64,000 nucleotides of DNA, taken from the NCBI RefSeq assembly GCF_003018115.1, contig NZ_CP027457.1. One strand, written 5' to 3'. The stretch's first letter is position 1. Each line of letters opens with the position of its first letter. Position numbers and translations under genes: made by a program. Under the pieces are notes generated by a model, which worked only from the letters and a program-made list of their open reading frames with translations, searched no databases and had not been told where the DNA came from. Source of the stretch: Escherichia coli. Lineage in GTDB: Bacteria > Pseudomonadota > Gammaproteobacteria > Enterobacterales > Enterobacteriaceae. Below, piece by piece: positions 1 to 8,877 of the stretch.

Positions 1-331
1 ATTGTGCAGGTCAGCTCGTTTTTAAAGAGTCCGGCCATCATCTTACTGGTACAGACACCATATACTTTGTGACGGTCAGGCTACATATGCACAACTCAAC
101 TTATTCATCTATTTTTTGCTTTAGCATGTCAGTGTTGCTTTCTCGTCGGCGGGTGAGCGGTGACCTGACCTGTCGATAAAGGAACGTAACACGTTTTATG
201 CAACACCCGCATGCGGCAGAAAATTATTGCCGAACGTTTACCCCTGTCAACAAGCTTTACTTTCTGAGGCGCGCCAGCCCGCGAGGAAAACAATCTGAAC
301 ATCAAACAATTAATGACACAAGAAATACGAT

Positions 332-358
332 TAAAGATTTTTTTGTGCATGCCGATAG
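332..358 (+). promoter_or_regulatory. sigma-28 (FliA) type promoter upstream of flxA
   Basis: TAAAGATT (332-339), 11-nt spacer, GCCGATAG (351-358), matching class 3 flagellar promoter consensus TAAAGTTT-N11-GCCGATAA; sits 24 nt upstream of the flxA ATG with AGGAG RBS. Confidence 0.6.
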
Positions 359-381
359 TGCTTTTTTAAAAGGAGAAATCT

Positions 382-714
382 ATGTCTGTCACAATTCAGG
401 GAAATACCTCAACCGTTATTTCAAACAACTCCGCCCCGGAAGGAACATCAGAAATAGCCAAAATCACAAGACAAATTCAGGTGCTGACTGAAAAGCTTGG
501 GAAAATCTCATCGGAAGAGGGGATGACGACACAGCAGAAAAAAGAAATGGCTGCATTGGTACAGAAGCAAATTGAAAGCCTCTGGGCTCAACTGGAGCAG
601 TTGTTAAGGCAGCAGGCAGAGAAAAAGAATGAAGACGCGACAGTTCAGCCTGATAAAAAAGAAGAGAAAAAAGACGATACAAATACCGCTGGCACCATTG
701 ATATTTACGTCTAA
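382..714 (+). CDS. flxA: FlxA, FliA-regulated prophage protein
   Basis: 110-aa ORF MSVTIQGNTSTVISNN... recognised as Qin prophage FlxA; RBS AAGGAG upstream. Confidence 0.85.
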   Translation: MSVTIQGNTSTVISNNSAPEGTSEIAKITRQIQVLTEKLGKISSEEGMTTQQKKEMAALVQKQIESLWAQLEQLLRQQAEKKNEDATVQPDKKEEKKDDTNTAGTIDIYV

Positions 715-728
715 GTGACAGCCGTATT

Positions 729-751
729 GTGGCCCTCATCGGGCCACTTTT
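729..751 (+). terminator. putative hairpin terminator after flxA
   Basis: GTGGCCC-TCATC-GGGCCAC stem-loop followed by TTTTC. Confidence 0.4.
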
Positions 752-879
752 CGCCATCAGCCTTTTCTTTAAAGACATATTATCTTTGTATCATTTCTGA
801 TAGTTAACATTACAAGATATAAGTAATGGACGCACTCCCAATTAGTCTATTTAAATCGCCACGAGTTTAACTGACAACC

Positions 880-2600
880 CATGATCAATTATGAATTGCA
901 ACTATTTCTGTAGTCACTTTTGTGGGGACAGTCCACAAAACTGCCAACTTCCGCTTCTTGCTCTTAGCGGACATTAGCATAGGCTATTTACCATAACGCC
1001 TCATTACGCGCACCGCCCAGACTGACTCAGCGCGTTTCTGGCATATCCCCGGTAAAACAAGTAACAAACCACCCGAAAATGAACACCAGAAACGCGACTT
1101 AAGAATCTACCCTATGAATGGATATGCACTCAACCGAATCGATCTTGGTTTCAATCTTTTTTATCGGGATCAGGCTTCTTTTTAGGTAACTTCGGGGGCT
1201 TAACTTGCTGATGACTTTGCGTTCGGCGCGTAAGCCAGGGATGGTCAGCTTTAGGTTTAACATAGTATTTTGAGCGTAAATCAATACGGGCATTATCCAC
1301 TCGTTCATGGACACTCTTTTCATCATCCAGTGGTATAGGCTCCGGGCCATCAACATACTTTTCCCAGCCCAGCGCTTTCCCGTCATACAGAACGTTAATT
1401 TCACCGTCAAAGTTCTCGCATACAGTAACAACCGAATGCCTAAGTCGATATCCCCGGCCCTCACTGCGTACCTGAAACGCACTGCTTTTGTACTGGAAAG
1501 TGAGATTTTTAGACAGAACGCGCTTCGCCTGTAGGCTGAAGATATAACCCAGTTCCTCTTCAGAATGGTGCACATCAAGATGAGCATTATCAGTAGTACG
1601 AGGCGACGTAGCGAACCGGTTGTTATAGGCTTCAATAAAGGTCGGCAACCATGCATTTGCTGTTTCAATATCACTGATATTCTGAAGCCGCATTTCTTTG
1701 ACCAGCCTGTCCTGTAGTGTCTGATTGGCGCGCTCTACCCGCCCTTTTGCCTGCGGGCTGTTGGCATGGATTGGCTCGATGCCCAGTGTCTTTATCGCAC
1801 GAGTGAACTGGGTCAGCTCACCTTCCCGCTCTGGGTTATTTACCCTGAATATACTGTGTCTATCAGAGTAGAGAGCGAGCGGTACGCCATGATCATTAAG
1901 GTAACCCCGGAGGGTTTCCATGTAAGCCCGGGTTGTTTCAGCAGGCACAAAACGCAACGCCATCAACGCACTGGTGGCATCATCAATGAAAACGATCAGT
2001 GTACATCTGGGGCCTCGATTTTCAAACCAGTCATGAGGTGAGCCATCAATCTGGATCAGTTCACCGTAAGATGGTCGTCGCATGCGGCGTTGATATATAC
2101 GGGCAATTTTACGACGGCGTTCACGCCATAACCCCTCTTCTATCATCCACTTTCTGAGAGTTTCAACGGATAAAGATAAACCGTGTATCTCGCGCAATTT
2201 TTCGCACGCAAACGTAGGTCCAAAATCAGCGTAACGGCCTTTGAGGAGTGAAATTACTGTTGCTCTGAATTCAGTAGAAAAGGAATTATTAGGACGCTTT
2301 CCACGTCGGTGGGAAACCAGACCAGAAGGCCCTTCATTTCTATACCGTTGCACCAGACGTTTAACCTGCCGAATAGAAATGCCAATGCGTGCCGCAGCTT
2401 GTTCCTGAATAATCTGAAGTCGGTGGAGTTCCTTATGACTCATCGTAACAGTCTCTTTGATCATGAAAAATCCCCCAGAGAATTGTCTGGGGACATTTTA
2501 GAATGGTTCAAAGGGGACATTACAGCTTGGTGTTAACAATAGCCTGCTTCTCCGTGCCTTTCGGCACGTAAGAGGCTAACCTACATGTGTCTAGCATGAA
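880..2600 (-). mobile_element. IS481-family-like insertion sequence, boundaries not resolved
   Basis: single 437-aa transposase ORF with N-terminal HTH and rve-type DDE core; interrupts prophage synteny between flxA and the replication module; ends are approximate. Confidence 0.45.
1151..2464 (-). CDS. DDE transposase, IS481-family-like
   Basis: 437 aa; HTH-like N-terminus (ARIGISIRQVKRLVQRY), integrase-core motifs (IDGSPHDWF..., LYSDRHSIF, E in RANQTLQDRL), basic C-terminal tail. Confidence 0.75.
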   Translation of the reverse strand: MIKETVTMSHKELHRLQIIQEQAAARIGISIRQVKRLVQRYRNEGPSGLVSHRRGKRPNNSFSTEFRATVISLLKGRYADFGPTFACEKLREIHGLSLSVETLRKWMIEEGLWRERRRKIARIYQRRMRRPSYGELIQIDGSPHDWFENRGPRCTLIVFIDDATSALMALRFVPAETTRAYMETLRGYLNDHGVPLALYSDRHSIFRVNNPEREGELTQFTRAIKTLGIEPIHANSPQAKGRVERANQTLQDRLVKEMRLQNISDIETANAWLPTFIEAYNNRFATSPRTTDNAHLDVHHSEEELGYIFSLQAKRVLSKNLTFQYKSSAFQVRSEGRGYRLRHSVVTVCENFDGEINVLYDGKALGWEKYVDGPEPIPLDDEKSVHERVDNARIDLRSKYYVKPKADHPWLTRRTQSHQQVKPPKLPKKKPDPDKKD

Positions 2601-2798
2601 ATTGGCCTCAGATTAATGTTAAGCGTCTTGCAGGACGCGTAATGTTAACTGGGGCTTTTCTCTATCTGCCGTTGGTGTCCATGCCCGAGGCAGATAGCCT
2701 CAAGCACCCGCAGTCATTCTACTTAACTAAGATTTCCCCGCAAACCGTTTTTGTCCAGCACAGTAAATATCCAACTAAACCAATGGAGTTCGCTGTAT

Positions 2799-2978
2799 TT
2801 ACCGCCAGTATTCAATGCACATGACCGCCATGAACACCCCTAAAAAAAGGGCATTTATATATCCAAATATTAATATCAAAACATCAACTTTTTCCATATA
2901 CCTTGCTGTGAAGATGATGGGCATACATGATGCGAACAACCAGAACGCAACAAACAAAAACTGCAATGCGTTTTTCAT
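2799..2978 (-). CDS. small hydrophobic protein (59 aa), unknown function
   Basis: ORF MKNALQFLFVAFWLFASCMPIIFTARYMEKVDVLILIFGYINALFLGVFMAVMCIEYWR with two predicted hydrophobic helices; consensus AGGAGG RBS 5 nt upstream of the ATG on the minus strand. Confidence 0.4.
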   Translation of the reverse strand: MKNALQFLFVAFWLFASCMPIIFTARYMEKVDVLILIFGYINALFLGVFMAVMCIEYWR

Positions 2979-3245
2979 TATTCCTCCTACAATCAATGTG
3001 CAATTACATTTAAACACACCTCAATTTGGCCGGACATATAAATATCTAAACCAGAAAAAATCACTTACATAGCGTTACAAACTCTTTAGTCTAAAGGTTC
3101 ATCGTAAAACATTCCCCATACTTATCAGTCCGTTCCGCGCCAGGTAGCTCATTGCCTTATCTGGCAACCTGTAATCAGGTTTCCGCTTTTTCAGTTGGCT
3201 GGTCGTTTAACCGACATAGTTAATCCATTAATCTAGTTGCCGGAT

Positions 3246-3660
3246 GTTGGTGGATTTTCGCGTTTTAGTTGTTCATAAAAGTGCACAGCTTTAACCAGTT
3301 CTTCTGATGTAACTGGGACTGGTGAGGCAGTGAATAAGGCCTGAATTTGATAGTTCGGCCTGTCGTTACAATCCTCTTTTTTCGGTACATATTTCCAGTC
3401 ACCAGACCACTACTTCCCCTGAAAGTCCGTAACGCCTTTTTTCACGTAGCGATATCGCCATGCCACTGGTTTTGCTTGCCCCGCCGTTTCATGCCCTTCC
3501 TGATAATTAATCTCGCTCATTCATCGCCCCACTCATCACAATATGCTTCGACCGGAGTTTTTCCCGCTTCATAGTCATCACGCTAGGATTCGACATCAGC
3601 AGCACTTCCACCGCGTAACTCACCATAGTCCATTAATAGTTCATCCCGCTCTTCAAAACT
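3246..3660 (-). pseudogene. degraded prophage gene remnants (short ORFs broken by stops and frame changes)
   Basis: minus-strand translation gives runs such as MSEINYQEGHETAGQAKPVAWRYRYVKKGVTDFQGK and WSGDWKYVPKKEDCNDRPNYQIQALF... in shifting frames; continues across the IS66 target site. Confidence 0.25.
3653..3660. repeat. target site duplication TCAAAACT (left copy) of the IS66-family element
   Basis: identical 8-mer immediately outside both inverted repeats. Confidence 0.8.
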
Positions 3661-3741
3661 GTAAGCGTCGTCTCAGCACCGTCTGGCAGATCCTGAAATT
3701 CCTGAGAGAATAGTGGACACCAAATATGGTGGACGCAATCC

Positions 3742-4146
3742 ATGAAATCATTAACCGCAGTGCGTAAAAAAAGCCCTAATTATCCCGTTGAGTTCAAAAT
3801 CAAAATGGTTGAACTCTCGCATCGACCAGAGATCTCCGTAGCGCAACTCGCTCGTGAGCATGGGATCAACGATAATTTGCTGTTCAAGTGGCGCCAGTAC
3901 TGGCGCGAAGGAAAACTACGTCCTCCTTCAACAACAGAAAACAACGTGCCTGAGCTGCTCCCGATAACACTTGATGCCGAAGATGTTGTCCCTACAACCT
4001 CCCCCCGGTCACAACCTGTAGCTGCTGCGACACCTGAATCACTCAATATCAGCTGTGAAGTGACGTTCCGGCACGGATCACTCCGTCTGAATGGTGCCAT
4101 CAGCGAAAATATCCTGAACCTGCTGATACGGGAGCTCAAACGTTGA
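3742..4146 (+). CDS. IS66-family TnpA (orf1)
   Basis: 134 aa, HTH-like N-terminus; first ORF of the IS66 triad. Confidence 0.8.
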   Translation: MKSLTAVRKKSPNYPVEFKIKMVELSHRPEISVAQLAREHGINDNLLFKWRQYWREGKLRPPSTTENNVPELLPITLDAEDVVPTTSPRSQPVAAATPESLNISCEVTFRHGSLRLNGAISENILNLLIRELKR

Positions 4147-4490
4147 TCCCATTACCATCAGGGACAAAGATCTGGCTGGTCGCTGGCATCACCGATATGA
4201 GAAACGGCTTCAACGGCCTGGCGGCAAAGGTGCAGACGACGCTGAAAGACGATCCGATGTCAGGTCACGTTTTTATCTTCCGTGGGCGTAATGGCAGTCA
4301 GGTAAAGCTCCTCTGGTCTACCGGCGATGGACTGTGTCTGCTGACCAAACGGCTGGAGCGCGGCCGCTTCGCCTGGCCGTCAGCCCGGGATGGCAAAGTG
4401 TTCCTCACACCGGCACAGCTGGCGATGCTGCTGGAAGGTATCGACTGGCGGCAGCCTAAAAGACTGCTTACGTCCCTGACTATGTTGTAA
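4143..4490 (+). CDS. IS66-family TnpB (orf2)
   Basis: 115 aa MIPLPSGTKIWLVAGITDMRNGFNGLAAKVQ...; overlaps the tnpA stop. Confidence 0.8.
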   Translation: MIPLPSGTKIWLVAGITDMRNGFNGLAAKVQTTLKDDPMSGHVFIFRGRNGSQVKLLWSTGDGLCLLTKRLERGRFAWPSARDGKVFLTPAQLAMLLEGIDWRQPKRLLTSLTML

Positions 4491-4538
4491 GCCTCTTTAT
4501 CCTGGTCGACGCTGAATGAGCCTGGTAATATACCCGGT

Positions 4539-6074
4539 ATGAGCAGCTCACTTCCTGACGATATCAATGCACTGAAACGTCTCCTTGCCGAACAGGAGGC
4601 GCTGAACCGTGCCCTGCAGGAAAAGCTGAACGAGCGTGAACGCGAAATAGACCATCTGCAGGCACAGCTGGATAAGCTGCGCCGGATGAACTTCGGCAGC
4701 CGCTCGGAAAAAGTCTCCCGTCGTATCGCACAGATGGAAGCTGACCTGAAGGCACTTCAGAAAGAAAGTGATACCCTTACCGGTCGGGTTGACGACCCGG
4801 CCGTGCAGCGCCCGCTGCGTCAAACCCGCACCCGCAAACCGTTCCCCGAATCACTCCCCCGCGATGAAAAACGGCTGCTGCCGGCAGCGTCATGCTGCCC
4901 GGAATGTGGAGGCTCGCTGAGCTATCTGGGTGAGGATGCCGCCGAACAGCTGGAGCTGATGCGCAGCGCCTTCCGGGTTATCCGGACTGTACGTGAAAAG
5001 CATGCCTGTACTCAGTGCGATGCCATCGTGCAGGCCCCCGCGCCTTCACGGCCCATCGAGCGGGGTATCGCAGGACCGGGGCTGCTGGCCCGCGTGCTGA
5101 TCTCAAAGTATGCAGAGCACACCCCGCTGTACCGCCAGTCTGAAATGTACGGCCGCCAGGGCGTGGAGCTGAGTCGTTCACTGCTGTCGGGCTGGGTGGA
5201 TGCATGCTGCCGGCTACTGTCACCGCTGGAAGAAGCGCTTCAGGACTATGTGCTGACTGACGGTAAGCTCCATGCTGATGACACGCCTGTCCCGGTGCTG
5301 TTGCCAGGCAATAAGAAAACGAAGACCGGGCGGTTATGGACCTACGTTCGTGACGACCGTAACGCCGGGTCAACGCTGGCGCCGGCGGTGTGGTTCGCTT
5401 ACAGCCCGGACAGAAAAGGCATCCATCCGCAGACCCATCTTGCGGGGTTCAGTGGTGTACTGCAGGCGGATGCATACGCCGGGTTCAACGAGCTGTACCG
5501 GGATGGCCGGATAACGGAAGCCGCCTGTTGGGCTCACGCCCGCCGTAAAATCCACGATGTGCACGTTCGCACCCCGTCAGCCCTGACGGAGGAAGCGCTG
5601 AAACGGATCGGCGAACTGTACGCCATCGAGGCAGAGATAAGGGGAATGACGGCGGAGCAGCGCCTTGCCGAACGTCAGTTGAAAACGAAACCGCTGCTGA
5701 AATCCCTGGAAAGCTGGCTGCGTGAAAAGATGAAAACCCTGTCGCGACACTCAGAACTGGCGAAAGCGTTCGCATACGCCCTGAACCAGTGGCCGGCGCT
5801 GACGTACTATGCAGATGATGGCTGGGCTGAGGCGGACAATAACATCGCTGAAAATGCGTTGCGGATGGTCAGTCTGGGCCGCAAAAACTACCTGTTCTTC
5901 GGTTCGGATCATGGAGGAGAGCGGGGAGCGCTGCTGTACAGCCTGATCGGGACGTGCAAACTGAACGGAGTGGAGCCAGAAAGCTACCTCCGCTATGTCC
6001 TTGACGTCATAGCCGACTGGCCGATAAACCGGGTCGGCGAACTGCTCCCCCTGGCGCGTAGCACTGCCGACTGA
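4539..6074 (+). CDS. IS66-family transposase TnpC (orf3)
   Basis: 511 aa with N-terminal coiled-coil, CxxC pairs (CCPECG, CTQCD) and DDE-type core typical of IS66 transposases. Confidence 0.85.
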
Positions 6075-6115
6075 ATAACACATCCCCGTCAATACGGTTC
6101 TTGCTGCACGCTTAC

Positions 6116-6123
6116 TCAAAACT
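6116..6123. repeat. target site duplication TCAAAACT (right copy) of the IS66-family element
   Basis: identical 8-mer immediately outside both inverted repeats. Confidence 0.8.
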
Positions 6124-6593
6124 GATGTTATATTTAGCTGAACAAAAATCAGCCACTTTGTTCTTCCTCATCGTCTTTTATTTCGTGGTATGAGTAATTG
6201 CAGTAGTTAAAGAAAATTTCTTATGCTCCGTCATGAATTTCCTCAGGTGTTGCGTCATCGTCCACTTCGAATACATCCTCAAAATCTCCACCAGCTATTC
6301 CCGTTTCAATAATAATTTTGAACTTTCGCATTTCACTACCGCCCTTTCGGGCGGCCTCCTGATGTTCTGAGGGTGCAGAAATCCATCCGGTTAAGGATTA
6401 AATTTTATTTACAGAACTGAATTTAATTATTCAGATATACGTATCTGTAGCCTTACGAATCTACTCACTGGATGCCTCTTTCATAAAAATAATCCAGTGG
6501 GTTTTATCGTTTTTTCCCTGTTCGTTGACAGATAACAGGTTTTCTGTCTGTCAGTGCCAGAATCTGGCTTACCGGTATTTGCGTTTCATTCCA

Positions 6594-6950
6594 TTAAAAA
6601 ATCAGAACGCCGTGCGGCCTCAACACCCGAAAGGCTTCTTTAAATCTCTGTCGCGAATCATCACGCCAGGCATCTTTATTCAGCCGTCCATATTTCTTTC
6701 CCATCCAGGCGTTATCACCAACACTCTCAAGATGCGGAGGGTCTAATACAACCATCGAAAAAGATGCGTCTGCAAATGATAATGCACGAAAATCTGCGAT
6801 AATGTCAGGGCTGATAATCAAGCGTCTCCCATTGCGTAATGTGTATCCTTCTTTTCTGATATCGCTGAATATCGCCCGTTCGTCAGACTTATCGAACCAG
6901 AACATGCGGCTGCCACAGCACATATCAAGAATGGTTGCCGGTGCACTCAC
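6594..6950 (-). CDS. small SAM-dependent methyltransferase-like protein (118 aa), possibly truncated or orphan
   Basis: G-loop-like motif ILDMCCGSRMF and a DPPH motif (DPPY-like amino-methyltransferase motif IV); start overlaps the stop of the upstream ORF by 4 nt. Confidence 0.4.
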   Translation of the reverse strand: MSAPATILDMCCGSRMFWFDKSDERAIFSDIRKEGYTLRNGRRLIISPDIIADFRALSFADASFSMVVLDPPHLESVGDNAWMGKKYGRLNKDAWRDDSRQRFKEAFRVLRPHGVLIF

Positions 6951-7369
6951 TGCGCCACGTCCTGAAAATTACCCTGATAGAAAGCCAGTATGCGCTGCAT
7001 AACTTCGCTCTTCCGGCACTCGCGACAGATTATGTTTAGGCGACTGTCGTAGCGACGTATTTCTCCGTCAGGTGATGACCAGATAAGGTCCGGATCAACC
7101 ACAGCAGGTTTCTTCACCTTTGCCCTCGAGAGTTTTTTGCGGGCGTTTTGCCAGTCCTTACGCGCCTGTTCAGAGGGGAATAACCCGTAGCCGGAGTTGT
7201 ATACATCGCCACTGGCTACCAGCTCTCTGGCAAGAACGCTCATCAGATATCTAGTCGCACCTGTTTTAGCTTCCAGTTGCCGTAACGTCTCACGGCCGCT
7301 CTGGCGCACGAGTTCCACCACCTGCCATTTAATTTTTTCCCGCTCTTCTTGTGTAAAAACTTTTGCCAC
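6947..7369 (-). CDS. hypothetical prophage protein (140 aa)
   Basis: ORF immediately downstream of the replication gene on the same strand; no recognisable family from sequence alone. Confidence 0.4.
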   Translation of the reverse strand: MAKVFTQEEREKIKWQVVELVRQSGRETLRQLEAKTGATRYLMSVLARELVASGDVYNSGYGLFPSEQARKDWQNARKKLSRAKVKKPAVVDPDLIWSSPDGEIRRYDSRLNIICRECRKSEVMQRILAFYQGNFQDVAQ

Positions 7370-7409
7370 AAGTCCCCCTTAAAATTACCTCATGACCTGA
7401 AATCAACAC

Positions 7410-8375
7410 TTATCCTCTGAAACCAGGCGGAATTTCTGTATCCGGTTCAGAAATATGATTAACACAACGCTGTACAGGTGAACGTCCCAGGCGGATGACC
7501 AGTTCGTCCCATTTTTCGCGGAGCTTTGACGGGCTCATGATGTTTTTTACCCAGAATGGATCTCGCTGAACCCGACCAAACATTTCGCAAATTTGTCTGT
7601 GGCTTCTGCCATCCAGCATCCGCATTGTGCGCACGTCATTGGCCCAGGCAGTCCAGTTAGGCTCTTTTGGTCGCATGATCTCGCCATCATCACTGGCTGC
7701 CTGTTCGTAGAGACCCACGATCCGCCCCCAGATCCACTGCGCACACGCCAAATCCTCCCTGCTACCCCACTGGCGTTTTTTCGCACTAAACACAACCGCG
7801 TCGGAGTTCCGGGTTAAAAAATCCTGTTCAGTCGTCTGCGGGTCCGGTTGCGAAGCTTCCGGACGAAAAGTGTTTTTATTCTCTGTAGTAATCTCTGTTG
7901 TATTCTCTGTAAGATCATCAGGCCATTTTGACCCGATGACATTGGGTCGTTTTGAACCAATGGAGCGTTTCATTTTGACCTCTTCCATCGTGTCATTTTG
8001 ACCTGATGGAGCGGCGCATTTTGAACCGATGGATTCGCTCAATTTGCCACCATCTAAAAGCTCGCTCCCATAGTTGATCGTGTAGAAATTGGTCATATCG
8101 CGCTTTGATTTATTGAGCTTTTCACAACGCAAAAGCCCCAGCGTTTTCAGACTTGCAAACGCGCGCTTTAACGTTGACTCTGACCAGAATGGGAACTGTT
8201 CCAGCCATTGTTCCGTTGTGTTATAAATCCAGCGAACACCATCACATTCCATGCCGGAGTTGGTATCTCTCAACCAGTAGTGCAGTTGTTGCAAAACAAT
8301 GGCTTCGTTTAAGCCAATTTTCATTGCCAGCTGCGTGTTTATAACCAGTGGACGTTCAGCAAAAAGAAGGCTCAT
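7410..8375 (-). CDS. phage replication initiator, lambda O-like (replisome organiser)
   Basis: N-terminal region resembles the phage O N-terminal DNA-binding domain; iterons embedded in the coding sequence (protein repeats IGSK); start uncertain: TTG at 8429, ATG at 8375 or ATG at 8324. Confidence 0.6.
   Translation of the reverse strand: MSLLFAERPLVINTQLAMKIGLNEAIVLQQLHYWLRDTNSGMECDGVRWIYNTTEQWLEQFPFWSESTLKRAFASLKTLGLLRCEKLNKSKRDMTNFYTINYGSELLDGGKLSESIGSKCAAPSGQNDTMEEVKMKRSIGSKRPNVIGSKWPDDLTENTTEITTENKNTFRPEASQPDPQTTEQDFLTRNSDAVVFSAKKRQWGSREDLACAQWIWGRIVGLYEQAASDDGEIMRPKEPNWTAWANDVRTMRMLDGRSHRQICEMFGRVQRDPFWVKNIMSPSKLREKWDELVIRLGRSPVQRCVNHISEPDTEIPPGFRG
7924..8054. repeat. iteron array (putative prophage origin of replication) inside the O-like gene
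   Basis: five to six copies of CATTTTGA(C/A)C(N)GATGG-like units at about 23-24 bp spacing (near 7924, 7949, 7971, 7994, 8017, 8041), flanked at 7861-7923 by ATTCTCTGT repeats and an AT-rich stretch. Confidence 0.6.
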
Positions 8376-8877
8376 AATTCCATCCAGCTTTTTGTTGGTA
8401 TTGCTGTCGATACGCAAGTTTGAAAGCAATTGCTTTTTCTATAAGTTCGTCAGTTTCACGATCCACTACGGCAGGATCAGCAAAAAGCAGTCCGGACTCC
8501 ACCACATCGCCATATTCTTTGTTTAACCCGGCGATCATGCACGTGATGCTTTTTCCGTCAGTAATTTCACGATACAACCTGAAATCATTAATCCGGATAG
8601 CCTCCATAATTGCAGGCACTAGCGCCGTGAACTTTTCACGCTTATCCCTGGTGTCGATAGCCTTCCAGCGTTCAAATATCTTCACTCGATTAACGCCAAG
8701 CGCTCGCTGATCAATCGCGCCACCTTCATATGTGACACGCTGAACATCGATGTTCGGGCGCTCTTTCAAAGCCCAGAATGCTTCAGTGATTAATATCGTC
8801 GCCTGCTCCTGTGTCATTCCTGGTCGACATATCCAGGCATCCAGAGCCTCACGAGCCTGTTCAGGAGTGATTTTCAT
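8356..8877 (-). CDS. hypothetical prophage early protein (173 aa)
   Basis: ORF between the cro-like dicC and the O-like gene on the same strand; ATG start. Confidence 0.45.
   Translation of the reverse strand: MKITPEQAREALDAWICRPGMTQEQATILITEAFWALKERPNIDVQRVTYEGGAIDQRALGVNRVKIFERWKAIDTRDKREKFTALVPAIMEAIRINDFRLYREITDGKSITCMIAGLNKEYGDVVESGLLFADPAVVDRETDELIEKAIAFKLAYRQQYQQKAGWNYEPSFC

Follow-up and report, generated by a model that had tools for sequence, protein, structure and literature searches.

A relBE-carrying transposon of the IS1202 family probably occupies the start of hokD in an Escherichia coli prophage

We analysed a stretch of Escherichia coli DNA of 64,000 nucleotides (contig NZ_CP027457.1, assembly GCF_003018115.1; hereafter the window), close to whose first nucleotide lies an open reading frame (ORF) for a transposase. 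Comparison with related loci leads us to conclude, with a probability of roughly 0.88, that this ORF is the transposase gene (tnp) of a cargo transposon, 3.3 kb long and of the ISEsa1 type within the IS1202 family, which has relBE, ydfV and flxA aboard and sits on the start of hokD. Read in the direction of the transposase gene, the element consists of the tnp end (TGTTAACACC...), tnp, flxA, ydfV, relB, relE and the far end (...GCGTTGACA), and these five genes are the only ones in it. The transposase family and the name ISEsa1 are already known, and our full-text literature searches found no described IS1202-family transposon that targets hok or carries relBE.

The tnp end was mapped in an alignment of the window with seven further copies, which come from chromosomes of E. 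coli and from plasmids of the types IncF, IncI and IncHI2. The copies are identical up to window position 2538 (...GGTGTTAACA) and show about 70% identity past it. Leftward identity was compared in a Qin-type chromosome and in IncF, IncI and Enterobacter plasmids; the high identity runs through flxA, ydfV, relB and relE and breaks off at TGTCAACGCAAAGCAG..., immediately before a hok start codon that has diverged. Such a diverged hok start precedes the far (or "rel") end, TGTCAACGC..., in each copy, and the copies are identical inward from there. In the present case the position of the far end is predicted from another locus, L001: window positions 1-3890 are 100% identical to L001 3302-7191, and the element ends in L001 are at 2566 and 5839. 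By this identity the far end would lie 735 bp before window position 1, at a predicted junction ...CTTCATAGCCTGCTTCTCC/TGTCAACGCAAAGCAG..., and these 735 bp would carry the far end, relE, relB and the start of ydfV. The element so reconstructed spans window positions -735 to 2538, which is 3274 bp, or 3301 bp with an intact transposase gene.

The two ends resemble each other in several respects. The far end TGTCAACGC... and the tnp end ...GTGTTAACA agree at 22 of 30 positions, and their tips are TGT/ACA. Each end comprises an imperfect inverted repeat of ~30 nt and, 24-25 nt further in, a second copy of its inner part (GGKGACAYT). In the far end the inner motif reads AGTGTCACC and GATGTCATG; in the tnp end it reads GGGGACATT, at 2513-2521 and 2489-2497. 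An inverted repeat whose inner part recurs in this way is described for the IS1202 family as providing an extra transposase-binding site (PMC10132070), and the subterminal repeat at 2489-2507 is putatively a second site of this kind. A preliminary description of the locus, made from the sequence letters, had pointed to GGGGACA motifs near 921-930, 2489-2498 and 2512-2521. These motifs are real, at 924-932, 2489-2497 and 2513-2521, and GGGGACAKT occurs exactly these three times in the window (expected 0.86; three are reached in 5 of 100 shuffles). The right-hand pair is credited because its members head 19-nt direct repeats, 24 nt apart, which are invariant in every related copy; both lie inside the right end and form part of it. 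The motif at 924-932 is internal and has no functional support. As a candidate end or structured element it was rejected: it is in direct orientation to the end repeats, the hairpin around it is weak (fold z-score -1.6), and it is absent from copies with other cargo, whose alignment begins at 946. The chance expectation for such a motif inside the element is only ~0.03 sites.

The same description had reported neither clean terminal repeats nor a target duplication. This is true for the ORF by itself, as an inverted copy of either end occurs within 850-1200 only at chance level (best 14/26 matches). The ORF alone is not bracketed by such features because the element extends 3.3 kb to its second end, beyond the window; over that distance it does have clean ends and a 15-bp duplication. 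A duplication of 24-29 bp around the BLAST boundaries 946 and 2609 was also tried and discarded, since the sequences there mismatch and the boundaries represent cargo junctions and homologous hok flanks.

In the Qin copy the 15-mer ATAGCCTGCTTCTCC adjoins both ends of the element. On the hok strand it reads GGAGAAGCAGGCTAT, from the Shine-Dalgarno (SD) sequence through the AT of the ATG of hokD, a prophage gene for a type I toxin. Matched local duplications flank the copies at other hok loci, namely ATGGCCTTCTTCTCC on IncF plasmids (in both a 3,307-bp and a 12,843-bp form), ATCATAGCCCCTCCA in the IncI copy and GGAGAAGAAGGCCAT in the 6,093-bp IncHI2 form. The duplication is thus 15 bp long at four hok loci, and it is 16 bp in Citrobacter relatives. 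Empty sites were predicted by rebuilding each site with one 15-mer copy, and were then searched for. The rebuilt Qin site finds a contiguous match at 98.8-99.2% identity, and at least 80% of the site is covered by one place in 3,819 of 5,426 complete E. coli genomes. A homologous prophage in the same chromosomal region of E. coli CP53 contains the 15-mer once, and to either side of it the prophage is collinear with the window. The rebuilt IncI site is matched at 100% identity over 515 nt in ColIb-type plasmids. The matched duplications and empty sites therefore fix the ends to the base and identify the whole 3.3-kb unit as the insertion. Additionally, the 3.3-kb units of the chromosome, IncI plasmids and IncF plasmids share 99.5-99.8% identity but have diverged flanks, which would speak for recent mobility. 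The earlier view that a prophage is interrupted after flxA was right about the interruption and wrong about flxA, which is cargo within the element and not part of the interrupted prophage. Its further suggestion of passenger sequence proved correct, as relE, relB, ydfV and flxA all lie between the mapped ends.

The transposase itself, of 437 residues, is encoded by a single uninterrupted ORF. Pfam recognises N-terminal helix-turn-helix (HTH) domains (HTH_32/29/28/23) and a weak rve_3 integrase core, which together with the curated ISNCY model confirms the HTH plus DDE transposase proposed earlier. The NCBIfam model NF033594 (transpos_ISNCY_2) matches residues 14-368 with 456.4 bits (cutoff 250), while the IS481 model NF033577 yields 125.7 bits, under its cutoff of 224. 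The label "IS481-like" given at first was therefore reasonable but imprecise, the IS1202 elements being only distant relatives of IS481 (PMC10045372). Near-identical genes, including that of an intact 446-residue protein, are labelled "IS1202-like element ISEsa1 family transposase" by PGAP/RefSeq. The DDE residues can be read from the sequence in IQIDGSPHDW, ALYSDRHS and GRVERANQTLQ, with Q at E+7; a Q, rather than K/R, seven residues past the E of the triad is a trait of the IS1202 family (PMC10132070). We conclude that the ORF is an ISNCY/IS1202-family transposase of the ISEsa1 type and not an IS481 transposase. It shares with IS481 the HTH plus DDE architecture, the TG...CA tips and, with some members, duplications of ~15 bp, but it is ~100 residues longer and has a C-terminal extension. 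A sequence search of the PDB returned a retroviral integrase core as sole match, which is marginal (E = 0.0099); a TnsB-like fold with two HTH domains, RNase H domain, beta-barrel and C-terminal domain has been claimed for the IS1202 family (PMC10132070). The window protein corresponds to the 446-residue plasmid protein minus residues 22-30 (SINRHITQE), an in-frame loss within or beside the first HTH. To judge from this comparison, the window copy may be immobile. Deleted (3274-bp) and intact (3301/3302-bp) forms of the element are both common among prophage contigs.

The insertion lies within a hok locus. Rfam RF01794 (sok) matches at 2709..2538 on the minus strand with 104.1 bits (gathering score 59) over model positions 1-157, i.e., full length, and the terminal AUG of the model falls on the insertion point. 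The insertion thus splits hokD between leader and start codon: the tnp side retains the hok promoter, mok and the Sok target, and an intact SD, ATG and hokD follow 71 nt downstream of the relE stop, where the L001 annotation places the hokD coding sequence after the far end. The inverted repeat noted previously at ~2660-2700 is present (CTATCTGCC/GGCAGATAG, arms 2651-2670 and 2689-2708), but it is the first helix of the hok leader and stands outside the element. The spacing of 71 nt equals the tabulated relE-hokD spacer of the co-transcribed relBEF operon (PMC5120126), and the K-12 Qin prophage has the same relBEF/hokD (relF) genes at this same spacing; relBE has been described as "integrated" into hokD from plasmids by a vehicle that was left unnamed (PMC6379469). 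K-12 is 100% identical to the window over 1-1335 and lacks window 1336-8597 (7.26 kb), with a deletion junction inside the transposase gene and ending in ydfX. It keeps the far end, relBE, ydfV, flxA and the last 49 transposase codons (1151-1300), which are annotated there as ydfW/intK. The transposon origin is not visible in K-12 because the transposase, the tnp end and the hok leader have been deleted. Another deletion, present in some E. coli genomes such as DSM 103246 (L003 3966-3995), joins the hok leader, 29 bp past the element end (window 2567), to a DUF977 gene and removes ~4 kb that the window retains.

At least a dozen distinct hok-type sites contain, in the same place, sister copies of 3.3-12.8 kb with other cargo, and the units bounded by ends and duplication carry from 4 to more than 10 cargo genes. 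The tnp module, with the 27 bp restored, is ~1610-1620 bp long; similarity to copies with ncr/chr cargo begins at 946, and in the IncHI2 copy it ends at module position 1610. An IncF/IncR copy (L010 3258-16100) keeps the 0.7-kb relBE and 1.6-kb tnp modules with ~10.5 kb of chromate (chrBA) and nickel (ncrABCY) resistance genes between them. The copy on an IncHI2 mcr-9 plasmid (L076 4241-10333) contains genes for a cytochrome b and a cation-diffusion (CDF) transporter and an inserted ISEsa2; relative to the window/Qin copy, its tnp module is 90% and its relBE module 99% identical. Two relatives in Citrobacter sp. 18056, of 9.7 kb (L014 9927-19610) and 10.1 kb (L015 9928-20071), encode transposases of 81-82% identity, have 16-bp duplications and differing metabolic cargo, and carry a TacA/TacT (GNAT) toxin-antitoxin pair at the distal end. 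The target in L014 is the SD/ATG of a 30-residue hydrophobic ORF, for which Pfam and NCBIfam gave no match. Tandem copies are seen at L102 11689-11755 and L113 2711-2777, where exactly one 15-mer separates the far end of one copy from the tnp end of its neighbour. A single 42.5-kb contig contains both L113 and L114, two copies that are identical over more than 6 kb. In Leclercia adecarboxylata (L020 9972-10978), a transposase gene breaks off near residue 114 and is directly adjoined by a far end, an arrangement that looks like one element inserted into the tnp gene of another.

To describe target choice, we surveyed the flanks of all tnp ends found in genome, viral and metagenome contigs. For metagenome loci, the upstream flanks alone were used, since a relaxed far-end search gave false positives (sizes 229, 256 and 1140). 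A hidden Markov model of the hok leader matches 29 of 47 distinct 60-nt flanks, five of which are its seed sequences, and a hok-type SD stands at the same register in 29 of 43 distinct 28-nt flanks; about thirteen different 15/16-mers occur among the flanks. Just 5' of the hok SD lies a small palindrome whose 3' arm is (G/T)GCA(A/C). The distance from the end of this arm to the insertion point is exactly 15 or 16 nt in 23 of 29 hok-type flanks, and likewise in 5 of 14 unrelated ones (chance ~1.6% per flank). Among viral contigs, 39 of 41 carry the Qin hokD insertion, and most prophage examples are a single inherited event.

We compared the element with the catalogued ISEsa1, which is listed with 1609 bp, inverted repeats of 15/22, no duplication and no known target (PMC10132070). 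The two agree in the transposase, the intact 446-residue protein being so named by PGAP, and in the length of the tnp module, 1610 bp as against 1609 bp. They differ in that the present elements measure 3.3-12.8 kb with cargo, strongly prefer hok starts and have 22/30 repeats and a 15-bp duplication. The catalogued ISEsa1 has both ends within ~1.6 kb; here the far end is 3.3 kb away. The IncHI2 copy that adjoins ISEsa2 has 90% DNA identity to the window copy. We take the catalogued ISEsa1 for the module because the IncHI2 similarity stops at 1,610 bp, close to the listed 1,609 bp; this suggests that the entry represents only the transposase module, its "missing" duplication resulting from a wrong boundary.

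The element shows the curated model match, the Q at E+7, the imperfect TGT/ACA repeats, the subterminal inner copy and the duplication length class of the IS1202 family, in which duplications of 5-6, 15-17 and 24-29 bp are distinguished. It is not, however, a simple insertion sequence (IS), which would have a single ORF and measure 1.3-2 kb, but represents a cargo transposon (transporter IS) within that family. With the dif/pdif-targeting ISAjo2/ISAba32 subgroup it shares a single large HTH plus DDE transposase, TGT...ACA tips, a subterminal copy of the inner repeat, site-specific, oriented insertion that keeps a constant distance to a short landmark, and tandem insertions (PMC10132070; bioRxiv 10.1101/2022.12.17.520857). 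Those IS, however, are 1.5 kb long, and they insert 5 bp from the XerC arm of dif-like sites with duplications of 5-6 bp, whereas the present element makes duplications of 15-16 bp at the hok SD/ATG and carries kilobases of cargo. The ISTde1 subgroup is close in duplication class (16-17 bp, as compared with 15-16 bp here), but its members are simple IS with no target reported. In the published phylogeny ISEsa1 falls in a separate small group with ISCARN112 (PMC10132070). Tn7 resembles the element in its TGT/ACA ends, several transposase-binding repeats per end, cargo and oriented site-specific insertion, and conserved motifs around the DDE residues are common to Tn7 TnsB and the IS1202 family (PMC10132070). 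The element nevertheless has no TnsA, TnsC, TnsD or TnsE genes, and its duplication is 15 bp instead of the 5 bp of Tn7; it is not a member of the Tn7 family. The K-12 Qin locus, alike in genes and spacing, differs in having lost the transposase, tnp end and hok leader.

These results bear on three other explanations. The mobile unit might be the catalogued 1.6-kb ISEsa1 only (window ~946/957-2538), with no duplication and with relBE-ydfV-flxA as unrelated neighbours. The literature entry (1609 bp, inverted repeats 15/22, no duplication; PMC10132070) reads in this way, and copies with different cargo become similar from 946 or 956. But nothing end-like is present in 850-1200 (best 14/26), the left junction varies between these two positions and lies beside the inserted ISEsa2 in the IncHI2 copy, the duplications flank units of 3.3, 6.1 and 12.8 kb and not the 1.6-kb module, the whole 3.3 kb is missing from empty sites, and the listed length is simply that of the shared tnp module (1610). 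We regard this explanation as largely refuted and very improbable.

Marginally less credible still is the view that hok genes exchanged the relBE-flxA-tnp block through homologous recombination or gene conversion, or that it spread as a bare toxin-antitoxin cassette derived from plasmids. A duplication made of local, site-specific sequence lies on both sides of every complete copy, the junctions are base-exact at the TGT/ACA inverted repeats, flanks of ~70% identity are a poor recombination substrate, and one 15-mer separates tandem copies. What this explanation does account for is the recombinant copies L009 and L069, with flanks from different hok loci, and the mosaic of modules (IncHI2 versus Qin, tnp 90% and rel 99% identical); the "integration" of relBE into hokD without a vehicle (PMC6379469) would also suit it. 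That the ORF is a degenerate phage integrase in native prophage DNA has almost no chance of being right. The K-12 name intK for the 3' remnant within the Qin prophage (ydfW/intK) and the rve_3 integrase-core signal in Pfam point that way; the score of 456 bits with the curated ISNCY transposase model, the same unit on IncF, IncI and IncHI2 plasmids and the homologous prophage that lacks precisely this unit speak against it, and the first and last of these refute it.

Several points count against the cargo-transposon reading or limit it. The support comes from sequence comparison, and this copy, with its 9-residue deletion, may be dead. The far end and relBE lie outside the window and are placed by loci that are 100% identical over the shared 3.9 kb. 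Copies L009, L069 and L007 have no matching duplications; they are best read as recombinants between copies. A full 3301-bp copy on an IMG/VR contig (L050 1345-4645) occupies a non-hok site with only a 6-bp repeat, CGCCTT. Many of the "distinct" flanks are single-nucleotide variants of one ancestral hokD insertion, so independent events number far below 47, and the hok bias could come partly from survivorship or from the sampling of enterobacterial plasmids and prophages.

Taking the cargo transposon as given, we propose the following mechanism. A single TnsB-like DDE transposase would bind two sites at each end and pair the ends; it would then join them to the target, whose two strands would be cut with a stagger of 15-16 bp. 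Given the absence of a TnsA-like gene, and by analogy with relatives (bioRxiv 10.1101/2022.12.17.520857), copy-out/paste-in or replicative transposition is the probable route. The transposase itself would achieve the sequence-directed, oriented capture of the target, with (G/T)GCA(A/C) as the apparent cue, a motif that is invariably on the tnp side and directly precedes the 15-16 bp that are duplicated. The relBE module may act as an addiction cassette for the element, and read-through from the relBE promoter would produce the known relB-relE-hokD(relF) operon.

We lean, by a narrow balance, towards a broader proposal that is undescribed in the searchable literature. ISEsa1-type elements in general would be single-transposase, TnsB-like cargo transposons of 3-13 kb that insert in one orientation, with 15-16-bp duplications, on the ribosome-binding site and start codon of hok-family type I toxin genes next to a (G/T)GCAA landmark, always with a type II toxin-antitoxin system (relBE or tacAT) distal to the transposase; K-12 relBE/relBEF would be the remnant of one such insertion. 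The cargo-transposon reading itself resolves an anomaly in IS classification, as the ISEsa1 subgroup was set apart for want of a duplication and a target, and with the right ends it shows duplications of 15-16 bp and a strong target bias. It would also give a much-studied toxin-antitoxin locus a mechanistic origin, K-12 relBE being transposon cargo, and hokD would have become "relF" because the transposon landed on its start codon and the duplication regenerated the ribosome-binding site. One toxin-antitoxin system would ride a transposon that homes to another, which bears on plasmid and prophage stability and on the spread of modules. Sister elements with chromate and nickel resistance on IncF and IncHI2 (mcr-9) plasmids make annotation as complete transposons relevant for mobilome tracking, and a compact, single-protein, site-directed DDE transposon could serve as a model for target choice.

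Table 1. Positions of the transposon features and adjoining hok sequences in the window
Feature	Position	Strand	Evidence or remark
ydfV, 3' part, cargo	1..179	+	PGAP annotation of the identical L001 (3175-3480 = window -126..179)
Transposon, part within the window	1..2538	-	same unit with its own duplications in L005, L008, L010, L076
flxA, cargo, FlxA-like	382..714	+	ORF and annotation; Pfam FlxA 53.8 bits
Third GGGGACAGT	924..932	+	internal; weak hairpin 914-944; direct orientation to end repeats
Conserved transposase module (tnp end, tnp gene, ~200 nt downstream)	946..2538	-	cargo varies from 945/946
Transposase gene	1151..2464	-	437 aa, IS1202/ISNCY family, ISEsa1 type; Pfam, NCBIfam, annotation, sequence
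In-frame 27-bp deletion site, between 11-bp direct repeats	2403..2413	-	comparison with intact copies
Terminator-like hairpin	2472..2493	-	between inner end repeat and tnp start codon; promoter/terminator scan and repeat listing
Subterminal repeat GGGGACATTTTAGAATGGT	2489..2507	+	19-nt direct repeat; invariant in all copies; inverted match GATGTCATGC at far end; putative second transposase-binding site
Terminal inverted repeat, tnp end	2509..2538	+	ends ...GGGGACATTACAGCTTGGTGTTAACA-3'; 22/30 positions match far end; termini 5'-TGT/ACA-3'
hokD leader (sok/mok region), orphaned by separation from its coding sequence	2538..2709	-	Rfam RF01794
Right copy of the 15-bp target-site duplication ATAGCCTGCTTCTCC	2539..2553	.	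same 15-mer abuts far end in L001, L003, L004; single copy in empty site L034

The scan for promoters and terminators gave nothing notable besides the hairpin upstream of the tnp start codon (TCCCCAGA...TCTGGGGG, then a T-run). It may protect tnp against transcription from outside or mask the ribosome-binding site of tnp.

Further along the window, an IS66-family element (ISEc22 family by PGAP) covers positions 3660-6115, with ORFs of the tnpA, tnpB and tnpC type at 3742-4146, 4143-4490 and 4539-6074. It is an insertion relative to the uninterrupted prophage L034, which runs directly from window position 3659 to 6116.

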